DNA of 10,755 nt, taken from a bacterium. GTDB taxonomy: Bacteria > SAR324 > NAC60-12. How positions within the stretch are numbered: the first letter of the stretch is position 1; each line of letters starts with the position of its first letter. Positions 95 to 10,755 of the stretch are shown here, one piece after another. The DNA lies in the NCBI GenBank assembly GCA_965233585.1, contig CBDDTI010000258.1, forward strand, positions 1 to 10,755. The letters are read 5' to 3'. The notes under the pieces were generated by a model. The model saw only the letters and a list, made by a program, of their open reading frames with translations, did no database searches and was not told the origin of the DNA. The position numbers were made by a program, and so were the translations under genes.

Positions 95-268
95 GGGGCC
101 ATCCACAAACTAAGTAGACACTTAGGGGGGAGGGGGGGGGTCAGCCAACTGTTTACTCTAGGGGGTATTTAGAGGCTTTTTTATTGCAAAAAAAGCTAAA
201 ATTGTCTACGTGGGGGAGGGGGGGTCAAAATTTCCGGAAAAGGGTCTACGTAGTTTGTGGATGGCCCC
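95..268. mobile_element. MITE-like unit 1 with 25-bp terminal inverted repeats
   Basis: Begins GGGGCCATCCACAAACTAAGTAGAC and ends GTCTACGTAGTTTGTGGATGGCCCC (reverse complements, 1 mismatch). Non-coding interior with G tracts. Confidence 0.75.
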
Positions 269-296
269 TTATCTTACCAAAATTTTTTCAAAATTT

Positions 297-470
297 GGGG
301 CCGTCCACAAACTACATAGACACTTAGGGGGGAGGGAAGGTCAGCTAATTGTCTACTTGGGGGGGGGGTATTTAGAAGGTTTTTATTGCAAAAAAGCTAA
401 AATTGTCTATGTGGTGGGGGAGGGGGGGTCAAAATTTCTGAAAAAGTGTCTACGTAGTTTGTGGATGGCC
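297..470. mobile_element. MITE-like unit 2 (right TIR 2 nt short)
   Basis: GGGGCCGTCCACAAACTACATAGAC ... GTCTACGTAGTTTGTGGATGGCC, with the same internal layout as unit 1. Confidence 0.72.
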
Positions 471-516
471 ACGAGGGAACACAAGGGAACGAGTAACAAG
501 TGGCGTAATGCCACTA

Positions 517-690
517 GGGGCCGTCCACAAACTAAGTAGACACTTAGGGGGAGGGGGGTCAGCCAACTGTCTACTCCAGGGGGGTATTTAGAGGCTTTTT
601 TTTAATTGCAAAAAAGGCTAAAATTGTCTATGTGGGGGAGGGGGGGTCAAAATTTCCGGAAAAGGGTCTACGTAGTTTTTGGATGGCCCC
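517..690. mobile_element. MITE-like unit 3 (copy of unit 1)
   Basis: GGGGCCGTCCACAAACTAAGTAGAC ... GTCTACGTAGTTTTTGGATGGCCCC. Shares the unit-1 diagnostics CTAAGTAGAC and TTTCCGGAAAAGGGTC. Confidence 0.75.
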
Positions 691-718
691 TTATCTTACC
701 AAAATTTTTTCAAAATTT

Positions 719-904
719 GGGGCCGTCCACAAACTACATAGACACTTAGGGGGAGGGAAGGTCAGCCAATTGTCTACTTCAGGGGGGGCGGGGGGGGGGG
801 TATTTAGAGGGGTTTTATTGCAAAAAAGCTAAAATTGTCTACGTGGTGGGGGAGGGGGGGTCAAAATTTCAGAAAAAGTGTCTACGTAGTTTGTGGATGG
901 CCCC
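719..904. mobile_element. MITE-like unit 4 (copy of unit 2)
   Basis: GGGGCCGTCCACAAACTACATAGAC ... GTCTACGTAGTTTGTGGATGGCCCC. Shares the unit-2 diagnostics CTACATAGAC, GGGAAGGTCAG and AAAAAGTGTC. Confidence 0.75.
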
Positions 905-1146
905 TTTCGCAAAACATAAAGATAATGTTAGATTTTAGGATGAACTGTTCTTGAGCAGAGTTTATTTTGATAGAGATGGATTTGAAGTTGGAGGTCTAGA
1001 CAGGCTCTTTCGAGCTCGATGTAGGCACATTTCTTCTCAAAACGTTCTCAAAACACCTTAAAACAGTCTTAAACGGGCTTTTAACCATCCGTTTACGCAT
1101 AAAAACCATCTTGAAGCGCTCTCAAACCACCTTGATGGCATCTACA

Positions 1147-1392
1147 TTGAGCCTGTTGCAGGCTCAATCGAGCCTGTTTTTGTCTGTAATCGGCCTGCAA
1201 CCGGCTTGTTTTCGTCTGCAAACGGCTTGCAACAGGCTCAATCGAGCCTGTAATCGGCCTGCAACCGGCCTGTTTTCGTCTGCAATCGGCTTGCAACAGG
1301 CTCGATTGAGCCTGTAATCGGCCTGTTGCAAGCCGATTGCAGACGAAAACAGGCCGATTACAGGCTCAATCGAGCTTGTTGCAGGCCAATTG
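1147..1392. repeat. Palindromic array: 64-bp direct repeats built from 10-11 bp subunits, followed by an inverted copy
   Basis: CTGTAATCGGCCTG at 1184, 1248 and 1312 (period 64). The hairpin CAGGCTC-AATC-GAGCCTG recurs. Perfect 36-bp inverted arms at 1266-1301 and 1321-1356. Confidence 0.92.
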
Positions 1393-1460
1393 TAGTCAAA
1401 AACAAAGCTGTATTTCAGTATATTGTTAAACCTTGTTCAGATAACACTTGTTGCAAAATC

Positions 1461-1766
1461 ATGCTTCACAATAAAAATTTGTTTCAAAAAAATCCAAAAG
1501 AAGACGGCATTCTGCAACACATCTCAATTCTTCTCAACTCTATAAACAAAACTTTAAAACTGCTAGAGCAAGAAGTATCACTTTATTGTCAAGACGTCAA
1601 AAATCACACGTTTTTATTTTATGGTCCAAGAGATGATTTTGAAACTCGTGCACAAATCATTCCTGTCATTCAAAAAGAACTAGAAGTGTACCATTATTAC
1701 AAAAAAACTTTGGAACTTTTGTACATAATTTTTGCTCAAAGTTTTTACACTCAGTTTTTTTGTTAA
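1461..1766 (+). CDS. Hypothetical protein, 101 aa (MLHNKNLFQK...YTQFFC), probably helical
   Basis: ATG at 1461 in an AAAATC context inside ORF 1326..1766, whose upstream part is only translated repeat. Amphipathic stretch LQHISILLNSINKTLKLLEQEV. No family recognised. Confidence 0.5.
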   Translation: MLHNKNLFQKNPKEDGILQHISILLNSINKTLKLLEQEVSLYCQDVKNHTFLFYGPRDDFETRAQIIPVIQKELEVYHYYKKTLELLYIIFAQSFYTQFFC

Positions 1767-1955
1767 AACATCAATATTCCAAATAATGTCAATTTTATTA
1801 TGACCCTAATTCCTGTCATTCAAAAAGAACTAGAAGTGTACCACTATTACAAAGAAATAACTTTTGATCTTTTGTACAAAATTTAACTTTACACGCAATG
1901 TTTTTGTTTTAGTCAACAATATTTCACATCAATATTTTAAAATAATGTCAATTTT
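1659..1955. repeat. Diverged ~150-bp tandem duplication
   Basis: TCCTGTCATTCAAAAAGAACTAGAAGTGTACCAyTATTACAAA at 1661 and 1811. Both copies end with ACATCAATATT..AAATAATGTCAATTTT (~1768-1797 and ~1926-1955). Confidence 0.9.
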
Positions 1956-2178
1956 TGACTCATCGTCGGAAAGTGAAGATGAACAAGAAATTACCACACA
2001 CAACAATTTTGTAGAAGAAGATGTTTCGCCTGGTCTAATGAGTTGCTTGTACATTTTATGGATGTTACTTGGTTTATTCGTTTTATTTGAATATCATTAT
2101 CAATTATATTATGTAAATGTCAATAATAATATTAATAATTCATTTTTCCGTCAAAATACAAACGATTTATTAATTTAA
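1945..2178 (+). CDS. Small single-pass membrane protein, 77 aa, with an acidic N-terminus
   Basis: ATG at 1945: MSIFDSSSESEDEQE..., then the hydrophobic segment LMSCLYILWMLLGLFVLF and an Asn-rich tail. Confidence 0.6.
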   Translation: MSIFDSSSESEDEQEITTHNNFVEEDVSPGLMSCLYILWMLLGLFVLFEYHYQLYYVNVNNNINNSFFRQNTNDLLI

Positions 2179-2332
2179 CGTGCAATGTTTTATCTTTTCC
2201 AACGCGTGTCTTTCGTTCCTTTTTCACTCAATTCATGCAACACTGCACAATTCATTGATTTAGCATGCAATGTGCATTGAAGCGCACAATGTTTTATGTG
2301 CAATATATATGCAGTCAAAATTGACTCTTATT

Positions 2333-2339
2333 TATAAAA
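2333..2339 (+). promoter_or_regulatory. Candidate TATA box for the mucin-like gene
   Basis: TATAAAA ~120 bp upstream of ATG 2455. The AT-rich context makes a chance match possible. Confidence 0.3.
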
Positions 2340-2454
2340 AATATGTGTCTGAGCGCGTTTTAGCTGTAATTTTTTATTATACAAATAAAAATCTTGAATT
2401 CTGTAATTAAAAATTCTCACTTTGAACCAAAATCTTCAACAATTAACAACAGTC

Positions 2455-3491
2455 ATGAAATTTTTGACTTTATTTTTTTGTGTCATTTTTTTGACGCAAA
2501 ATTCCTTCGCCCAAAACATCACTTTTTGGAAAAATATTTTAGAAAAGGCTTCTGGATTTTCTGCCCCATTAAAGACCACCAGCTCCACAACCACCACCAG
2601 CTCCACAACCGCCACCAGCTCCACAACCACCACCAGCTCCACAACCACCGCTTCCACTTCTACCGCCGTTGCAATTATTACGTCCACCACCGCTCCGTTA
2701 AAGACCACTACAATTTCTTCAACAACATCAATTTCTACTACCATCGACAGTGTCACCACCACTGTGTCAACCAACAATTTAACAACCACCACAACTTTTG
2801 CAACATCTACTATTAGTCCTGCAACTACCACAATCAGTCCCACAACCGTAATAAACTCCTCTACCGTTCCTGACAAATTCACTTTTGACAGTAAGTTTGA
2901 TTTGTTTTAGTTTTATTTTATTTTCTCTAATAATTATATTACTATTTTGCAGACGGATTCAAATTGGTGGTTTTTGTTATTCTCGTAGTCGTTTGTCTTT
3001 TGGTGATAACCTTGACAATTAAATTTTGGAAATTTAATTCCCAACTGGCTAAACACAATTCTGAAGTAATTTTTTTAAATAAAAAATTTCTGTTTGATAT
3101 TATTATAATTTTTATTTATTTTAGTTTATTGAAATGTCAACTCTTCGTTGCAAAACAAAGAGTCAAAATTCAATACCTTCTTCACAAGCTGATAACAACG
3201 TGTTGCCAGAAACATGCGACAAAAAAATAAACACCGACGAGTCATATTTGTCAAATTTAAGGGTAAGAAATTAATCTTTTATTTTTTCAAAATTAATTAT
3301 AAAATTACTTTATTATTTATTAGAAATATCAATTCCGTCCGTTGTACCGCCCAACACCATCATATCCACGCACTTCGCTTCACAGACAACGGGCAGCATT
3401 TTTCAACGATTCTTTAAATTCCGTCACCACCGCTCAAATGGAATATTCTTCATCCGCCTCTTCTCTTTTTCATCCGCCCACTTCACATTAA
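2455..3491 (+). CDS. Mucin-like type I membrane glycoprotein, 284 aa, 4 exons: join(2455..2890,2953..3065,3125..3262,3324..3491)
   Basis: Signal peptide MKFLTLFFCVIFLTQNSFA; Thr/Ser-rich ectodomain with N-glycosylation sequons (NIT, NLT, NSS); TM segment LVVFVILVVVCLLVITLTI followed by KFWK; Ser/Pro/Tyr cytoplasmic tail. Introns 2891-2952 (GTAAGT..TTTTGCAG), 3066-3124 (GTAATT..TTTTAG) and 3263-3323 (GTAAGA..TATTAG) give an uninterrupted 855-nt frame. AATAAA at 3563. Confidence 0.85.
2575..2646 (+). repeat. Coding minisatellite, 4 x 18 bp (TTSSTT)
   Basis: ACCACCAGCTCCACAACC x4, with one A>G change in copy 3. Confidence 0.95.
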
Positions 3492-3594
3492 ATTTACTTT
3501 ATTTATATTTATTGTATTAGTAAGTAAGATATTTTAGAGTATGCGCATCTCTGTTATTTTGAAATAAACATATGTACATAGTAACCGCCTTGTC

Positions 3595-4803
3595 TCACTG
3601 TGGAATTACGGGTAGTTTTTTCTTAATGCCAAAACACAATTCCATAAATGCCTTTGTTATTTCTTCCAATCCTCTCAATGGCACCTGGATTTTCATAATT
3701 TTTGTTGAATATTGTTGGTTGTTCTCATTGTACTAAAAAAAGATACGGTTTAGAAGTGAACAATTCTTTCACTATCATTTTTACTTACGTGTTCCTTTTT
3801 CATGTAGATTACCGGCCAGGTCGACAATCCTCCTGCTTTTTGTATATGCCTTAAACCAGTTATCCCTACAGTCACTTGAGGATTAAGGTATACCACCTTA
3901 TACATTGGTTTTATTGGAAGGCTAACGCTTTTTTCGTCCACCTTTTTGTTCTTGATTAGTTCAATAAACTTTTTTAGTGTGGCTGGATTTATATACATGT
4001 ACTGAAATAAAAACTTAATCATTTCTGCAATAAAACGAATCAAATTAGAATTTCAAAACTTACGTTGTCCGGTCCAAAAAAGTATGCTTCTCTGGTAGAA
4101 TGTTCCTTTTGCCATTCCACAAAATCAATGTCTCTAGTGTCGGCCATTTTCTCAGTTGTCCAATTTCGAAAAAATACTTTTTGCTCCTCTTCATTCATTA
4201 AAATCTGGTACGTCATCAACGATGCGCCTTCATAAACCGCATGGTTGTTAATTTCATTTTCTAAAACCAGCTTCTTTTTTTTCGGTTTGGTTCTTTTCTT
4301 TCCTAAAATGTCTTGAGTCTGTTCATCAAGGTCTGCGTCCTCACTGACCTCATTGTCGTCATCATCATCATCATCATCATTATTTTCTGAACTTTCATCG
4401 CTCGGTTCTTCTACATCGGTTGAAACATCATCAGAGTCAGAAGTCAACTCTTCCACTTCTGATTCTTCAGTTTCTTCAGACGTAACATCAGTTTCTGACG
4501 ATGACATGTCTTCTTTCTTTTTTTGCTTTTTATCTTAAATAACATACAATATGGTTAATAAGGCCCACGCATATAAAAATTTATAAATTTGAAATTACCG
4601 GTTTTTAATTTATGTTTTTTATTTGAATTCTTCTTGGACTTCTTCTCACTCCCATGTTTTTTCTTATCAGCCTTTTTATCATTCTTTTCCGTCTCCTTTT
4701 TGGTCTTTTTTTTCTTCTCGTCCTGAATGGTCTTATGATTGTCCTCTTCGGCATTTTTTATGCGAGAATTTAATTTTCTCCTCTTTGCTGGTGATTTCTT
4801 CAT
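3595..4803 (-). CDS. Nuclear-type protein, 341 aa, 4 exons: complement(join(3595..3732,3789..4001,4064..4533,4599..4803)); Lys-rich N-terminus, Ser/Asp/Glu tract, globular C-terminus (possibly PC4-like)
   Basis: Minus-strand introns 4598-4534 (GTAATT..TTTAAG), 4063-4002 (GTAAGT..TTTCAG) and 3788-3733 (GTAAGT..TTTTTAG) join ORFs 4555-4803, 4040-4507, 3750-4043 and an unlisted last exon (YNENNQQYSTKIMKIQVPLRGLEEITKAFMELCFGIKKKLPVIPQ*) in frame, 1026 nt in total. The first intron is the least certain (AAG acceptor); the alternative start is ATG 4507. Confidence 0.78.
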
Positions 4804-5232
4804 ATTCTTTTCTTAAATGCGGGTTATTTATTCAAAGCAGAAATCCACACTGGCATCCAATAGAAAAAATTCCGTTCTTTTAAACCTTTTTCAAAGTTTA
4901 TTGCCTGCTACCAACTAGAGCTGGTTAACACCCTAAAACGACCCAACCCCAAGTGTGTGTGGACAAATGGTTGATACAATCATGGAATAAAAATTTTAAA
5001 TAAAGGACCATGCACGTGATTAAGATTTTAAAAAAACTAAAAAATGACAGGAACATAAATTTTCTTTTGTTTTAAGTATTTAACAGAGATAATGCGAAAT
5101 AGTGACCATAAATTTTATTGTCACAAAACTGCTTGACCGGAATATCGGTCAGAATTTTTCTCATGCAGTTATTTCTTTCCTGCAATTAGTCTATATACCG
5201 TTTAAGAAGTGAGCGCTTGCTGCTAAAATTTG

Positions 5233-5269
5233 TATAAAAGTCGGGATATATATTTTCATTCCGTCATTC
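5233..5269 (+). promoter_or_regulatory. Pol II core promoter candidate: TATA box plus initiator-like TCATTC
   Basis: TATAAAAG at 5233-5240, TCATTC at 5256 and 5264 (about 25-33 bp downstream), ATG at 5336. Confidence 0.55.
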
Positions 5270-5335
5270 TATCTTTGTTCAAGAAGTCTTCTACTCAAAC
5301 TACCCCAACTCAATTTTAAGGTAAAATAATAAAAT

Positions 5336-6145
5336 ATGCCTGGTCTTAACAACACCCAATCTCGTCAAGTAGCTCATGACTCGCAAGGGTTAAGGGTTAC
5401 CCTAAATCTTGCCGATGATTCAACATCGGGTCTCAACGTCTCCAATTCTGCTGGTGATTCAACATCAGGCCTTAACTTCATCAATTCTGCCGATGATTCA
5501 ACATCGGGATCTCCAACTGTTGTGCCAATTGGTCGAGGTGAAAGGTTGACAAGACCAATTAACACGGTAAACCCCTCTTCTACCAATCACAGAGTTGGAC
5601 GAGGTGGGAGAGTTCTTCCTTCGTCTCGCCTTGAAGTTGATGATTCAACATCGACATGGTTTGGTCGCAACCCCGCAAATAATTTATTTGTCGGGCGTGG
5701 CGTTGGTCGAGGTCAACCAACCCAATCAAATACCGAGCCATCAACTTCTGCTCCAAGAGTTGGGCGGGAGGTTGGAGGCGGTGCTGGCAGGGGTGGAAGA
5801 TATTTTCATCCTTACCAGCGTCCGGCAAACCAAACTTCTGCCTCCACAACCTCCACAAGAAACGAAACTCGATCGAGTTCCGTTATCATTTTGGACAGCG
5901 AAGGGGAAGAAGTTGAAGAGGAGGAGGAAAGTTTTGCTAGGTCGAATGACGACCACCACCGATCTACTTACATTGCACATTTATTTAATAGAAGAAGATC
6001 CATTTTTAGTGTTAATGAAAGATATTTGGAGTCTTTTATTCAACAGCAAATACGTGTACTTGAGCATGAGAATATTTTTTTACGAGCTGAAGTTCGTCGA
6101 TTAAATATTCAATTATGCCGATTGATGGATTTGTTAATTTCTTAA
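5336..6145 (+). CDS. Largely disordered 269-aa protein with DSTS repeats, GRG/RGG repeats, an acidic tract and a C-terminal leucine-zipper-like coiled coil
   Basis: Intact intronless ORF downstream of a TATA box, followed by AATAAA at 6214. Heptad L-EHENIF-L-RAEVRR-L-NIQLCR-L. RYFHPY resembles a PY-NLS. Confidence 0.82.
   Translation: MPGLNNTQSRQVAHDSQGLRVTLNLADDSTSGLNVSNSAGDSTSGLNFINSADDSTSGSPTVVPIGRGERLTRPINTVNPSSTNHRVGRGGRVLPSSRLEVDDSTSTWFGRNPANNLFVGRGVGRGQPTQSNTEPSTSAPRVGREVGGGAGRGGRYFHPYQRPANQTSASTTSTRNETRSSSVIILDSEGEEVEEEEESFARSNDDHHRSTYIAHLFNRRRSIFSVNERYLESFIQQQIRVLEHENIFLRAEVRRLNIQLCRLMDLLIS
5405..5510 (+). repeat. Coding 39-bp (13-aa) tandem repeat x ~3
   Basis: TGATTCAACATC recurs with period 39 (NLADDSTSGLNVS / NSAGDSTSGLNFI / NSADDSTSG). 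A fourth dispersed copy lies at ~5641. Confidence 0.88.
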
Positions 6146-6243
6146 GTTATTTGAGTTTATTTTGTATATACTTATTGTGTAATGTATTATCAAAATTATT
6201 TTAAATTAATGTAAATAAATTTTGTTTTCAGAATTTGTAAGAC

Positions 6244-6963
6244 ATGCCGAAATCTTACGTTTGTCCTGAATGTCAAAAATCGTTTGTTAGAAAATCTTCT
6301 CGCGACAAACATCATTTATTCCGTCATCGCAAAACTACAAAATCTCAAACTCGGACTCCGCTTAATCAGTCGTTTCAATGCCCATTTTGCGAGAACAAAG
6401 TAAGTTCCTTTAAATCAAGAAAAGATTTAGTCTCTCACATTGATGCTTCTCATTTGGAAAATTTACAATATTTATTACACAAATCAGCACTTAACGGAAA
6501 AATCAAATTTTATCGAAAACACATTTTTTCGAAAGAAACACTTAATGGTTTTGCTGCAAATAAAAAAAATAAACAAGAAATAGTTGACGTTATTCGTCAC
6601 GAATTAAGTAAAACTTTTACGGTTAAAGTCGCCCTTATTTTGACAGCAGCGTATCAAATTCCTGATTTGAATTCCGCTGCAGAGAAAAAAGACATTGAAT
6701 CAGATAATACCGATATTAGTGATATTTCTAAAAAACCTTCTGATCAGTCGTCGCTTGCAATATTGTCCAATGATCGAGATGTCTTTGCTTTAAGAACCAG
6801 CTACATTCAATTCACGTCTTTTGATTCATCTCGCTCGTTAAAAGGCAAGGTCCAAAAATTATTAAATAATTTAGTAAATCGAGAAGAAGATTTGTTGATG
6901 AGAGGTTCCGGATGGAGATTTGAGTCTTTATCTTTTAGTGATATTCAAATTACTAGTTTTTGA
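6244..6963 (+). CDS. Double C2H2 zinc-finger protein ending in the GSGW module typical of the N-terminal region of Polinton-type PolB, 239 aa
   Basis: YVCPECQKSFVRKSSRDKHHLFRH and FQCPFCENKVSSFKSRKDLVSHIDASH. C-terminal EEDLLMRGSGWRFESLSFSDIQI. Confidence 0.85.
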   Translation: MPKSYVCPECQKSFVRKSSRDKHHLFRHRKTTKSQTRTPLNQSFQCPFCENKVSSFKSRKDLVSHIDASHLENLQYLLHKSALNGKIKFYRKHIFSKETLNGFAANKKNKQEIVDVIRHELSKTFTVKVALILTAAYQIPDLNSAAEKKDIESDNTDISDISKKPSDQSSLAILSNDRDVFALRTSYIQFTSFDSSRSLKGKVQKLLNNLVNREEDLLMRGSGWRFESLSFSDIQITSF

Positions 6964-7015
6964 TTTTTATGGACTTATTTTATCTTATTTAAAATATTTA
7001 AAATAAACTTTGGAA

Positions 7016-9875
7016 ATGGATTTTATAGAAATTCCGCATGATTTAAGGAGATCTAATTGCTTGGAATGGAAAACTCGATACGATAAATTTAACTTTCTTT
7101 ATCTGTACATTAGACATCTTTTTCCTGAAGAAACGGTTTCCGTTGTTGATTTTCGTCAAATGCCAATAAGATTTCTTAAAAAGTTTAATGTAAAAGGTTT
7201 CAAGTTTCCTCTTCAATTTTGTAATTTAAAAAAATTTCTAAAAAAAAACTCCCATTTACCAATTTCAATTTCAGTTTTTTATGAGAGTGAGGGTCAAGTT
7301 TCGAAGTTAGGATTTTTTACTAATAAAAACAACGACAGAAACAAAAACATTTTAAATTTGTTAATGATAAAATATGATCCTGAAATCTCTACTGAACATG
7401 AATCTCTATTTTCCCGCCTTCCAAAATTAGCTAAATGCAAGAAAAAATCTTCTCGTAAAAAGATTGACAATTCTAGTTCTAATGTTAAATTGGGTTTTTC
7501 TTCCAAGTTTAAAAAGATTAAAGATTTAAATCAACAGCACCATTTTTTTAAAATCACTAAAATTCAAGGTTTTTTAAATAATCGGGCTAGACTGGTGTCG
7601 GACAAAAAAGCGGTTCAACAGAAGCACATCTATTGTGAAAAATGTCTGCTACGATTCCGATCAAAATTTAAGAAGGAAAAACATGAACAAACTTGCTACG
7701 ATAAACAACGTGCTGTCTACCCACCCAAAAATTTCTCCATAAGTTTTACCAATCACAGACATAAATTTCAAGCTCCTGTTGTAGGATTTTGTGATTTTGA
7801 AAGTGTGCTTCAAAGAAACAAAGAACGATCTAAGTGTCGATTTTGTTCAAAAACTGAGTGTCTGTGTGCTTTTCCCACCAGTGACGATATAAACGTGCAT
7901 AGACCGGTGGGCTATAGCTTGCTTTTTGTGGACTCCGACGATGAAGTATTTTTTCAAGAAGAATATTTAGGAGAAGATGCGGTTAAACATTTTTTGAATC
8001 GGTTGACTTTTTATGAAAAGGTTGTTGAAGAAAGAAAACAAAAATTTAGACATGTTGTTAAAAGTCAATCTAGTCCGCAAGAATGGCAAATGTATCGAGA
8101 AGCGAAGGTTTGTCATATTTGTGGCGGCCAGTTTAAAAATGAGTCTAGAAATTACAGAAAAGTTTTAGATCATGATCACGTGTCAGGCAAAATAATGGGT
8201 GCGGCTCATTCGTTGTGTAACTTGACAAGATCCGGTCCATACCGCACACCAATTTTTTTCCACAACGCTCAAGGGTAAGAAATTTTTGATTGAGTTTAGT
8301 TATCAAAATAATACAAATTATGCATGCGTTTCAGATATGATTTGCATCTTATTGTGAAAGAATTGAATCTTTCTCAATTTAAGTATAATCCAGAAGTTTT
8401 GGCAAAAAATAGTGAAAAGTTTCGCACTCTTACATTAGGCAAATTTAAAATTCAAGATTCATTAGAGCACATTTCTGCCAGTCTGGATGCTCTTGTTAAA
8501 GATTTAAATCAGACCTCAAATTTTTCCTTTCCCATCTTACAACAAATGGAAAGATTTAAAAAAATTCCTGCTCGTCAAAAATCAAAAGCTTTGAAACTTT
8601 TAAAAAGAAAAGGTGTCTTTTGTTATGAACATTTCCAATCCCTACAAGAGATGAAGAAAAGCCGAAACCTTCCGTCCAAAGACTCTTTTTATTCGGAATT
8701 AAACGAAGAACACATTACGGAAGCGGATTATTCCCATGCTCAAGAGGTCTTCAAATCATTTAAATGCAAAAATGTGGCGGATTACATGATGCTCTATTGT
8801 TCTTTAGACGTTGTTTTGTTGTGTGAAGCATTTCTTCAATACAGAAAAATGGTGATGGAGCATTTTCAATTGGATCCTGTTTATTATCTAGGTAAGTTTT
8901 ATTCTTTAATGTCAAATGTATTGTAATACTAAATTTATTTAACCTTAATTAGGAATTCCTGGATTGAGTTTTGACGTCATGCTCATGTTCTTTGAAAATT
9001 CAGAACAAGCTAAATCAGATAATAAGCTCACAACCAAATCCGAAACTTCCAAACCTCTTGGATCATTAGATGTCTATTCTGATCCTGAAATGGAGCGTTT
9101 TTTCACAAAGGGTATTAGAGGTGGGCAAAGTTTTATCGCCCAGCGTTATGCCAAAGGGAATAGCAATCCTGGAAAAAGCGGCGATCACTTGTTATACATT
9201 GATGGTAATTTTAAACTGTATTATTTAATAAAATTATTTTGTTTTAACTCAACAAATTTTTTTAGCCAATAACTTATACGGAAGTATGGAAACTTTAAAG
9301 TTACCAGTTTCTGATTTTAAATGGGTTCCAAAAAGTGAATTTAAAAGATGGACAGCTAAAGATATCATCAATATTCCTGCGCAAGACGATACAGGTTATG
9401 CGTTTGAAGTTGATTTGCATTATCCATCTCATCTTCATCAGGTAAATCTAATCTTTGGTGCAGCACGTTATTTATTAATTCCGGCAACTTATACACTATT
9501 ATTTTCAGGCACACGATCAATTTCCGCTGGCTCCGTATACAGACACGGTTTCTTTTAAACATCTATCTCCTTACAATCGCCGTTTACTGAAACAACACTG
9601 TCCTCGAGATTATAGGAACAAAAGATATCAAAGCAAGAAATTGTTGAGCACTTTTTATGACCGAAAGAAGTACGTGGTGCATCTGGAAAACCTGCAGTAC
9701 TACCTAAAAAAGGGCATGAAGCTGCTAAAGATAAGAAAAGTCATGAAGTTTCGACAAAAAGCTTTTTTAAAAGAATTCATCGAGAAGGTCACAAAGCTGC
9801 GATCGAATGCCCGCAACGACTTTGAACTAAGGCTTTTTAAACTTTTTGCCAACTCTACTTTTGGAAAGTTTATTG
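7016..9875 (+). CDS. polB: Protein-primed family B DNA polymerase (DNA_pol_B_2, Polinton/Maverick/adintovirus type), 3'-partial: join(7016..8274,8335..8891,8953..9204,9266..9441,9509..9875), 870 codons
   Basis: Exo I GFCDFES; endonuclease-VII-like CHICGG...DHDHVSGKIMGAAHSLCNL; Exo II HNAQG/YDLHLI; RKGVFCYE; Exo III LYCSLDVVLL; YYLG/IPGLSFD; motif A YID/ANNLYG; LHQ/AHDQFPLAP; motif B KLFANSTFGKF. Each slash marks a splice junction that rebuilds the motif. Motif C is absent from the window. Confidence 0.93.
8275..8334 (+). other. polB intron (60 bp, phase 2)
   Basis: GG/GTAAGA ... GTTTCAG/A. Removal gives HNAQGYDLHLIVKEL. Confidence 0.93.
8892..8952 (+). other. polB intron (61 bp, phase 1)
   Basis: G/GTAAGT ... 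TAATTAG/GA. Removal gives DPVYYLGIPGLSFDVML. Confidence 0.92.
9205..9265 (+). other. polB intron (61 bp, phase 1) inside catalytic motif A
   Basis: G/GTAATT ... TTTTTTTAG/CC. Removal gives LLYIDANNLYGSM. Confidence 0.94.
9442..9508 (+). other. polB intron (67 bp, phase 0)
   Basis: CAG/GTAAAT ... TTTTCAG/GCA. Removal gives YPSHLHQAHDQFPLAP, in frame with ORF 9641..9892. Confidence 0.92.
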
Positions 9876-9970
9876 GTAAGTTTCCAAAATAAGATGATTT
9901 ATCCGCGTAAAAAGAATAAGTACTATCATTAAGGGGTCATTTTTTATTTAGAGATCGTTTTTATTCTTAT

Positions 9971-10483
9971 TTACACATCGGGGACAAGTGCGTGGTGGTA
10001 CCTTTGACAGTTGCGACAGTAGGTCCGGACGGAGCTCACCACGCACTTGGCCGCATCGTACTTGTGCTCGTCTTGAGCACGGTTGGAGATGCGGTTGGGT
10101 TGTGGAGATGCGGTGTTGTTGGGGGGGACGTGGCCTGAACTTCTGCTAAAAGCAGCGGTGACCGTCCTCGCCAGCCCGACCACCGCATCGGCAAATCGAC
10201 TGATGAGGCTCCTCCTCGGCAACGTTGGCGGCGCGGTTGGTGGCAGCATCGTCGATGCCATCGACCGGTTTGTCTGTCGGGGATCCGGAGACGGTGGCGG
10301 AGCTGGCGGGATCGGAAGACGGCGGCGCCGCCTCCGGATCTTTGCAAAGTTGTTCGATGCTGGTGCTTCCTCCTCCTCCTCCATCCTGTCCCGCTCCTCC
10401 TCCATCCTGTCCAGCAAAAACACCCCGTCCTGCTCCTCCCTCCTGAACACCCCAATAATCATTCTCGTCCTCGTCCTCTTCAT
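9971..10483 (-). CDS. Hypothetical 170-aa protein: acidic tract, RRRRRR, Pro-rich linker, amphipathic helix and C-terminal CxxC/His cluster; start codon uncertain
   Basis: The stop coincides with the sharp GC-to-AT boundary at ~9971. Two minus-strand AATAAA signals follow (TTTATT at 9960 and 9943). C-terminus KCVVSSVRTYCRNCQRYHH. The competing overlapping frame 10146..10544 cannot be excluded. Confidence 0.55.
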   Translation of the reverse strand: MKRTRTRMIIGVFRREEQDGVFLLDRMEEERDRMEEEEEAPASNNFAKIRRRRRRLPIPPAPPPSPDPRQTNRSMASTMLPPTAPPTLPRRSLISRFADAVVGLARTVTAAFSRSSGHVPPNNTASPQPNRISNRAQDEHKYDAAKCVVSSVRTYCRNCQRYHHALVPDV

Positions 10484-10755
10484 CGTCCTTTTTCTCCTCC
10501 TTCTCCACCTTCCTTCCTTTAATTTGTTTTGAATTTTCCCACATGGGGTTGGTTGGGAAGTTATTAGAAATTAATCACCAAATCTCAACACAATTAATGG
10601 CAAATTATCTCATAAATATCAATAAATTAAATGAATATTAAATTGTAGAATTTGTGATATTGGTTTTATTATGTCATTTTTTTAAAGGAACAAATTTATT
10701 TGTTAATTTTTTTGGTCACTTTACGGGCTGTGGACGGGGACCACAACGACGGAAA

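Follow-up and report, generated by a model that had tools for sequence, protein, structure and literature searches.

The polymerase gene and the break after motif B

The window examined here is the whole of contig C258 (10,755 bases), from a bin of 747 contigs and 12.0 Mb deposited as a bacterial assembly (GCA_965233585.1), and it is the left arm (~10 kb) of a mobile element of the Maverick/Polinton type, ~23 kb in length. Its right-hand part carries the element's polymerase gene (polB, encoding a pPolB protein), which can be followed through five exons (Table 1) and then breaks off after polymerase motif B. The original prediction, made from the window alone, offered three accounts of this break: (a) a long intron containing one or more nested antisense genes, with the rest of polB downstream; (b) a split polymerase; or (c) truncation or misassembly. 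Related copies of the element in the same bin, together with database homologues, now allow these to be weighed.

Exon 1 encodes an endonuclease VII-like domain (~8069-8227; PF02945, E 2.6e-5, 24.5 bits against a cut-off of 23.6) and, as read by eye, the DFE of motif Exo I. Exons 1 and 2 align to residues 227-783 of the homologue P0002, exon 5 (window 9512-9874) aligns to its residues 909-1025, and all of the window's exons align, in order, to P0002, P0005 and P0073. The exon translations contain CDFES, FFHNAQG-YDLHLI, YCSLD, YID-ANNLYG and KLFANSTFGK, which we assign to the exonuclease and to motifs A and B of the polymerase; they are colinear with those of the homologues. The likely identity of the gene as a polymerase rests on its full-length homologues and on these motifs read by eye; of five homologues tested, three pass the Pfam model PF03175 (P0063, P0073 and P0047, at 82, 73 and 60 bits against a cut-off of 25.8; E 6e-23 to 3e-16).

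At the end of exon 5, motif B (KLFANSTFGKFI, 9839-9874) is followed by a last exon base, G 9875, and by GTAAGT from 9876, just as had been described. Without splicing, the reading frame runs through GKFPK and stops at the TAA of 9890-9892. The nearest acceptor (TTTTTATTTAG, ending at 9951 after a 76-nucleotide (nt) interval) gives in phase 1, by eye, EIVFILIYTSGTSAWWYL and then a stop; this decoy is not conserved, the start of the intron being unalignable between subfamilies A1 and A2 of the window's own family. Motif C is indeed missing, with no DTD or DSD in six frames of 9876-10755, and the antisense open reading frame (ORF) that was said to follow the donor runs from ATG to stop on the minus strand. 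It is referred to below as X2, and a second antisense ORF, of which the window holds the end, as X1.

Table 1. Coordinates of the polymerase gene and neighbouring features in the window (aa, amino acids)
Feature	Position	Strand	Basis or remark
Left terminal repeat region of element, with internal short repeats	1001..1405	.	matches twin ends; copy depth
C2H2 zinc-finger ORF, 239 aa	6244..6963	+	weak Pfam zinc-finger matches
pPolB exon 1	7016..8274	+	ATG 7016; 419 codons without stop; ends phase 2 in FFHNAQG
Intron 1, 60 nt, GTAAGA...TTTCAG	8275..8334	+
pPolB exon 2, YDLHLIV... to ...DPVYYL	8335..8891	+	185 codons without stop; aligns to homologues
Intron 2, 61 nt, GTAAGT...AATTAG	8892..8952	+
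pPolB exon 3, ends ...LLYID, first half of motif A	8953..9204	+	homologue alignment
Intron 3, 61 nt, GTAATT...TTTTAG; divides motif A (YID/ANNLYG)	9205..9265	+
pPolB exon 4	9266..9441	+	homologue alignment
Intron 4, 67 nt, GTAAAT...TTTCAG	9442..9508	+
pPolB exon 5, motif B inside; ends phase 1, G 9875	9509..9875	+	122 codons without stop
Putative long intron 5, first 880 nt	9876..10755	+	donor GTAAGT 9876; acceptor beyond contig end
Decoy acceptor TTTTTATTTAG	9941..9951	+	18-residue dead end
Antisense ORF X2, 170 aa	9971..10483	-	intact copies, dN/dS, database relatives
Overlapping ORF, 132 aa, MWENSKQ...	10146..10544	-	other frame; ATG conserved at DNA level
Conserved AT-rich block upstream of X2, TATA-like element	10486..10644	-	copy alignment
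End of X1, last 19 codons and stop, FPSLWSPSTARKVTKKINK	10696..10755	-	window reading

The intron site and the last exon in related copies

Window 1001-10755 recurs ~25 times in the bin, where the element has ~40 copies, and the best copy, here called the twin, lies on contig C224 with 97.9% identity over window 1809-10755. The twin intron is 2018 nt long, in phase 1 and with GT-AG borders (donor G at C224 23770, first exon base at C224 21752); it leads into TTTGCATTTCAG and an exon that is open over 263 codons. At the junction, TTTCAG/AA AAT GTT CGA AAT TAC, the divided codon G/AA (Glu) is completed and (E)NVRNY results, the last exon then reading NVRNYCEVV...FSDTDSF...GLRPKCYS, with motif C and KxY. 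The original prediction was of a phase-1 exon with DTDS that begins near E-N-x-R; the twin has such an exon, as do 23 other copies from families A and B (below).

Comparison with full-length proteins places the two halves side by side. Residue 1025 of P0002 (1295 aa) corresponds to window base 9874 and residues 1026-1293 correspond to the last exon of the twin, with no gap, residue 1026 falling on its first full codon. The joined protein lacks no residue and calls for no additional exon. A multiple alignment of five database homologues and an intronless copy from the bin likewise has motif B, FSDTDSF and GLRPKCYS in colinear order, and the twin's last exon has 234 longer homologues, mostly of 1200-1300 aa. 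In window terms, and as judged from the twin, the acceptor would lie ~1152 nt past base 10755, and the exon-exon junction is predicted to read ...TTTATTG/AAAATGTT.... A second piece of the polymerase last exon, decayed and with many stops, was also observed on the minus strand near C224 ~40831.

The same site was followed by tblastn and direct reading of 41 loci in the bin. In the window's family, A (subfamilies A1 and A2), 14 copies show both ends of the intron, which measures 2018 nt in the twin and 1583-2322 nt in 12 others, the remaining, decayed copy having 941 nt; the window and the copy on C705 run off their contig ends before the acceptor. Family B (~90% aa identity) has an intron of 1077-1351 nt in 11 two-ended copies, family C (~68% aa identity) one of 55-57 nt in nine, and a fourth family one of 68-74 nt in four, and a single remote copy on C606 has no intron and reads straight through (...NNSVTMENVRKH...). 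Of the 27 long-intron copies, 26 have GTAAGT as donor and one has GTGAGT; among the 24 two-ended A and B copies the acceptor is CAG in 23 and TAG in one; and the phase is 1 throughout. The site thus has the marks by which a spliceosomal intron is recognised, namely GT...AG borders, a constant phase, a conserved position and a protein that is restored without a gap. Because the same exon end and GT are present in the 27 long-intron copies and also in 13 copies of the two short-intron families, the junction is neither a chance occurrence nor an assembly artefact. It had been argued beforehand that copies continuing normally after an intron of ~60-76 bp would make the window copy a simple rearrangement. 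Introns of 55-74 nt do occur in more distant families, as that argument foresaw; its second half does not hold, since the window's family and its sister family, B, are all of the long form and the intron expansion is therefore lineage-wide and not a rearrangement of one copy.

Both sides of the intron have been kept intact, under strong purifying selection. An open upstream exon is seen in 35 of 36 copies and an open downstream exon in 32 of 34 (23 of 25 within families A and B). The ratio of non-synonymous to synonymous substitution rates (dN/dS), calculated after exclusion of copies with stops and of pairs with a synonymous rate (dS) below 0.01, is 0.01-0.10 in pairwise comparisons of both exons, within as well as between the long-intron families and at dS of up to 0.8; for exon 5 it is 0.01-0.07. 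Codons 1-64 of the downstream exon contain no Met and have a dN/dS of 0.02-0.16, and as Met-less codons under selection they must be translated as a continuation of the upstream sequence. Taken as sequence evidence, selection on both halves argues for splicing, and against a split or long-dead enzyme.

Antisense frames, the element and its source

The X2 stretch has 61% G+C against a window average of 37%. The N-terminus of the X2 translation is charged; the protein also contains a stretch rich in proline, a conserved helix (LISRFADAVVGLARTVTAAF) and, towards its C-terminus, a Cys/His motif (KCVVSSVRTYCRNCQRYHHALVPDV). An AATAAA lies just past the stop codon. In all family A and B copies X2 adjoins the donor, on the antisense strand, and it is intact in two of two A1, 10 of 14 A2 and five of 11 B copies. 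Common to the families are the charged N-terminus, a helix motif RR..LI..IR.A.A..AD and variable in-frame tandem repeats; the C-terminal motif reads ...C...TYCRNC.RYHHALV, with the family B version ...FCTKYWQYHHTLV. Six database proteins of 160-196 aa are related to X2 at 53-81% identity, none of them encoded in the bin, with 60 alignment columns invariant among the relatives, and an exhaustive profile search of 1.84 billion representatives returned 14 X2 clusters. X2 matches no Pfam family and has no protein-atlas match, and its AlphaFold2 (AF2) model (mean predicted local distance difference test score, pLDDT, of 54.7) shows a single helix, residues 93-115, in a largely disordered chain. A search of viral_contigs found relatives neither of X2 nor of the last polB exon; in metagenome_contigs neither relatives by X2 alignment nor an exact match to a 37-letter pattern of exon end plus donor was found. 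Rfam gave no RNA genes in the window or in the twin intron.

The 132-aa ORF that overlaps X2 in another frame is probably not a separate gene. The block CCATG(T/C)GG.AA..TTCAAAACAAA at its start is kept in A1, A2 and B copies regardless of the frame that follows, and in the relative P0124 and the copy on C670 its ATG is in frame with X2. The AT-rich block upstream of X2 is the sole stretch of the intron that matches ~14 other copies (77-80% identity), and has no second occurrence in the twin element; CCATG(T/C)GG.AA..TTCAAAACAAA forms its core, conserved in families A and B. It may serve as promoter and 5' leader. X1, a repeat protein rich in G, S and W that is ~397-426 aa long where intact, is found in family A only: it is intact, by a strict test, in eight of 14 A2 copies, frame-broken in the twin and absent from all 11 B copies. 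The twin carries inside X1 a 550-nt array of eight tandem copies of a 69-nt unit, which starts 235 nt past the window end and could be the cause of the assembler stopping there. Apart from three partial contigs, X1 and X2 are absent elsewhere in the bin. In the 185-aa protein P0129, from one of the 14 X2 clusters, an X1-like G/S/W-rich N-terminus is joined to an X2-like helix and Cys/His tail, which suggests that X1 and X2 may derive from one gene.

The twin element occupies 9572-32534 of C224 (22,963 bp) and is bounded by terminal inverted repeats with 80% identity over 479 nt, the first 36 nt being identical; window 1001-1386 matches both twin ends, in inverted orientation. Copy depth is ~160 at window 1201-1400 against ~25 over the element body. 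Short direct and inverted repeats at window 1159-1405, with ~160 bin matches against ~25 element copies, may represent solo ends or a derived miniature element. Outside the portion covered by the window, the twin encodes an integrase (rve PF00665, 38.3 bits, cut-off 32.6; Chromo, 27.8 bits, cut-off 25.1). Its candidate packaging ATPase and protease give weak matches below the cut-offs, to Pox_A32 (A32/FtsK type, 20.0 bits) and to Peptidase_C5 (adenovirus type, 16.9 bits) respectively, and a 457-aa capsid candidate has no Pfam match. A 6-bp target-site duplication was looked for in the C224 copy alone and was not found, the flanking hexamers of that copy, whose exact termini are uncertain, being different. 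The right half of the twin also encodes a TBP-like protein (L009:6359-6907, minus strand; PF00352, E 3e-18, 65.8 bits), and beside it (L009:5530-6288, minus strand) lies a gene with a TFIIB zinc ribbon (PF08271, 33.8 bits, cut-off 29) and helix-turn-helix matches; in a full-text literature search seen as titles and abstracts, no description of TBP or TFIIB in a Polinton/Maverick was found.

Several left-arm features stand apart from the intron. The zinc-finger ORF upstream of polB corresponds to a domain that is fused in some homologues: residues 2-196 of P0005 align to window 6253-6957, and P0002 and P0073 have zf-C2H2 at the polymerase N-terminus. Here its TGA lies 52 nt before the polymerase ATG, in another frame. 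An intron joining this ORF to polB was considered, as an in-phase GT...AG exists, and was rejected: most copies have GC in place of this GT, no GT donor is conserved, and the TGA and the following ATG are kept in 25 of 25 aligned copies. Further to the left, an ORF at 2407-2910 (plus strand) starts like a signal peptide (MKFLTLFFCVIFLTQNSFAQ) and contains a long stretch rich in Ser and Thr, and the next ORF (2934-3230, plus strand) has a hydrophobic segment; together they look like a mucin-like membrane protein. The flank outside the element contains, at 162-832 (plus strand), two to three copies of a ~380-nt repeat encoding ...GEGGSKFPEKGLRS.WMAPYLTKIFSKFGAVHKLHRHLGG..., with three to four further matches in the bin.

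The bin from which the window comes is mixed. In its five largest contigs (2.9 Mb) ORFs of >=100 aa cover 84-94% of the sequence; coverage falls below 60% in 653 of the 747 contigs (7.1 Mb), and its median is 29% for the 735 contigs outside the 12 largest. G+C is even across the bin, at ~39%. The bin is thus chimeric, combining contigs of bacterial density with ~650 contigs of low ORF density and similar G+C, and this is not revealed by its completeness of 92.5% and contamination of 2.1%. Maverick copies are found on many of the low-density contigs, several on one contig. The window, with its short GT-AG introns, falls in the non-bacterial (eukaryotic) part of the bin. In practical terms, eukaryotic DNA makes up ~7 Mb of what is labelled a bacterial bin.

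Interpretation, alternatives and comparison with known systems

The reading that best accommodates these findings, to which we give a probability of about 0.87, is that polB is not truncated, and that a long intron with one or more antisense genes follows motif B, the catalytic remainder lying beyond the contig end. This is option (a) of the original prediction, and for the window copy the claim draws on its twin and its family. The gene would then have six exons, with four introns of 60-67 nt and a fifth that is ~2 kb in the window's family, and the sixth exon, ~1.15 kb beyond the contig end, would supply what remains of the palm domain together with motif C (SDTDS) and KxY. An ancestral intron of ~55-74 nt would have been enlarged when X2 came in, before families A and B diverged, with X1 added later in family A and the elements continuing to multiply with the enlarged intron. 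Active polymerase would require nuclear transcription through the antisense genes and a host spliceosome to join ...GKFI-G to AA-AAT-GTT (E-N-V-R-N-Y), and X2 and X1 would be transcribed in the opposite direction, from their own conserved upstream region.

Several observations weigh against this reading. PF03175 matched no single exon translation of the window (E<=0.01) and, in a whole-genome scan that picked up other families of the bin, did not pick up the window's family. The window copy's own last exon is absent from the bin, and no contig continues the window copy. The four sequencing runs in which the sequence was found, all of one study, include no RNA, and contigs of the twin locus from these runs are short and DNA-like, with no joint that removes the intron (run depth ~30-80 over the subfamily-specific intron against 400-800 over exons common to all copies). 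Lastly, an intron of 1-2.3 kb stands beside four of 60-67 nt, and its efficient splicing is not guaranteed. That no joined transcript was found, and that the two parts lie 1-2.3 kb apart with other genes between them, would also suit a split polymerase, option (b), in which two transcription units would yield an N-part (exonuclease, motifs A and B) and a C-part (motif C, KxY), separate proteins that come together later. We consider this highly improbable, as the downstream frame has no ATG before codon 66 and its first 64 codons are nonetheless under purifying selection, as GT...AG, phase and exact site are identical to those of families with an intron of 55-74 nt, and as the upstream part would have to finish in the unconserved tail GKFPK. 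It is very unlikely, too, that the insertion of X2 and X1 inactivated polB and that these families spread non-autonomously with the polymerase of short-intron families, even though short- and no-intron families with intact polB share the bin and the length of the intron is atypical: open exons, low dN/dS across lineages that all have the long intron, and conserved splice signals are not expected of a gene unused since the ancestor of A and B. Misassembly or truncation of one copy, option (c), is true in the trivial sense that the contig ends inside the intron, 880 nt past the donor and, by the twin, shortly before a repeat array. As an account of the break itself it is scarcely credible, the junction and the first part of the intron being present in 27 copies on many contigs and independent run contigs covering both junction regions of the twin.

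Further points against the proposal concern its antisense genes, which might instead be a G+C-rich minisatellite that is open by chance in several frames. X2 sits in G+C-rich repeats with long ORFs on both strands (60-320 aa in repeat regions), it is broken in four of 14 A2 and six of 11 B copies (10 of 27), X1 is broken in ~6 of the 15 family-A copies extending as far as its start, and the lack of Pfam and protein-atlas matches and the mostly disordered predicted structure point the same way. Yet the X2 frame is free of stops and has the lowest dN/dS, at 0.43 (A2, n=10), 0.59 (A1 and A2, n=12) and 0.33 (B, n=5), values obtained from intact copies only and in an alignment guided by the X2 frame; four other frames across X2 give 0.87-1.31, and the complementary frame that shares the X2 wobble positions gives 0.46-0.55 and carries stops. 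The N- and C-terminal motifs are, moreover, common to A1, A2 and B despite DNA divergence, relatives of similar length with many invariant columns exist in other assemblies, the upstream block is conserved, and the repeat units have a length divisible by three (69 nt). A chance origin of the frames therefore seems rather unlikely, and X2 appears to act as a coding gene, under moderate selection and presumably expressed. A more speculative proposal, which we think is probably wrong in this full form, is that the intron serves as both cargo bay and switch: X2 and X1, members of a lineage-restricted Cys/His family that has been met in these elements only, would have been acquired by the intron or have arisen within it and would be read against the polymerase pre-mRNA, and expression of the two strands would be mutually exclusive, through transcriptional interference or double-stranded RNA, so as to toggle the element between a replicating and a quiescent or virion-forming state.

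Nested genes on the opposite strand in introns of eukaryotic chromosomal genes are textbook examples, and the arrangement proposed here resembles them in having an independent gene, with its own upstream region, on the other strand of a host-gene intron. It differs in that a mobile element's replicase plays host, and each transposition therefore copies the arrangement (27 copies, two families). In adenovirus, a relative of Mavericks, the E2B polymerase mRNA is spliced across a region carrying opposite-strand genes, and nearly the whole pol ORF sits in a single exon. The likeness is that a pPolB message arises by nuclear splicing, here presumed, over DNA used by the other strand; unlike in adenovirus, the catalytic domain here is divided between motifs B and C, and the two cases are analogous and not homologous. 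The element itself is like other Mavericks/Polintons in its length, terminal inverted repeats, rve integrase and many copies, and, in the twin, in a pPolB that has the Exo motifs, KxY and motifs A, B and C; candidate genes for a packaging ATPase and an adenovirus-type protease are present there too. Mavericks found intact in vertebrates reportedly lack introns (PMC8097293), whereas here there are five putative spliceosomal introns, the last of 1-2.3 kb and with antisense ORFs; the endonuclease VII-like domain of the polymerase and the TBP-like and TFIIB-like proteins of the element also set it apart from other Mavericks. Introner insertions are known in dinoflagellate Maverick/Polinton-like proviruses (PMC11957031 / PMC12166617), and these cases share with the present one the presence of spliceosomal introns in Maverick-like genes of elements seemingly capable of spread. 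As described there, introners are short non-coding transposons that make new introns, whereas here an old site (55-74 nt in sister families) appears to have been enlarged by protein-coding ORFs. In full-text literature searches, among the passages returned and including PMC10748475, PMC6431247 and PMC11161782, with Kapitonov and Jurka 2006 and Pritham et al. 2007 outside their coverage, no description of a gene nested in a Maverick polB intron was found.

In summary, the family to which the window belongs has reached at least 27 copies with a replicase divided between motifs B and C by an intron of 1-2.3 kb that is filled with probable coding sequence of the opposite strand. Mavericks/Polintons are usually regarded as compact, largely intronless virus-like elements, and in automated surveys a polymerase frame ending after motif B is written off as dead. 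X2, a small and previously unnamed protein family, gains a fixed genomic address. If the intron is spliced as proposed, replication of the element would rely on nuclear transcription and on the host spliceosome, introns of mobile elements could acquire genes that then travel along with them, and ORF-based censuses would undercount active elements.

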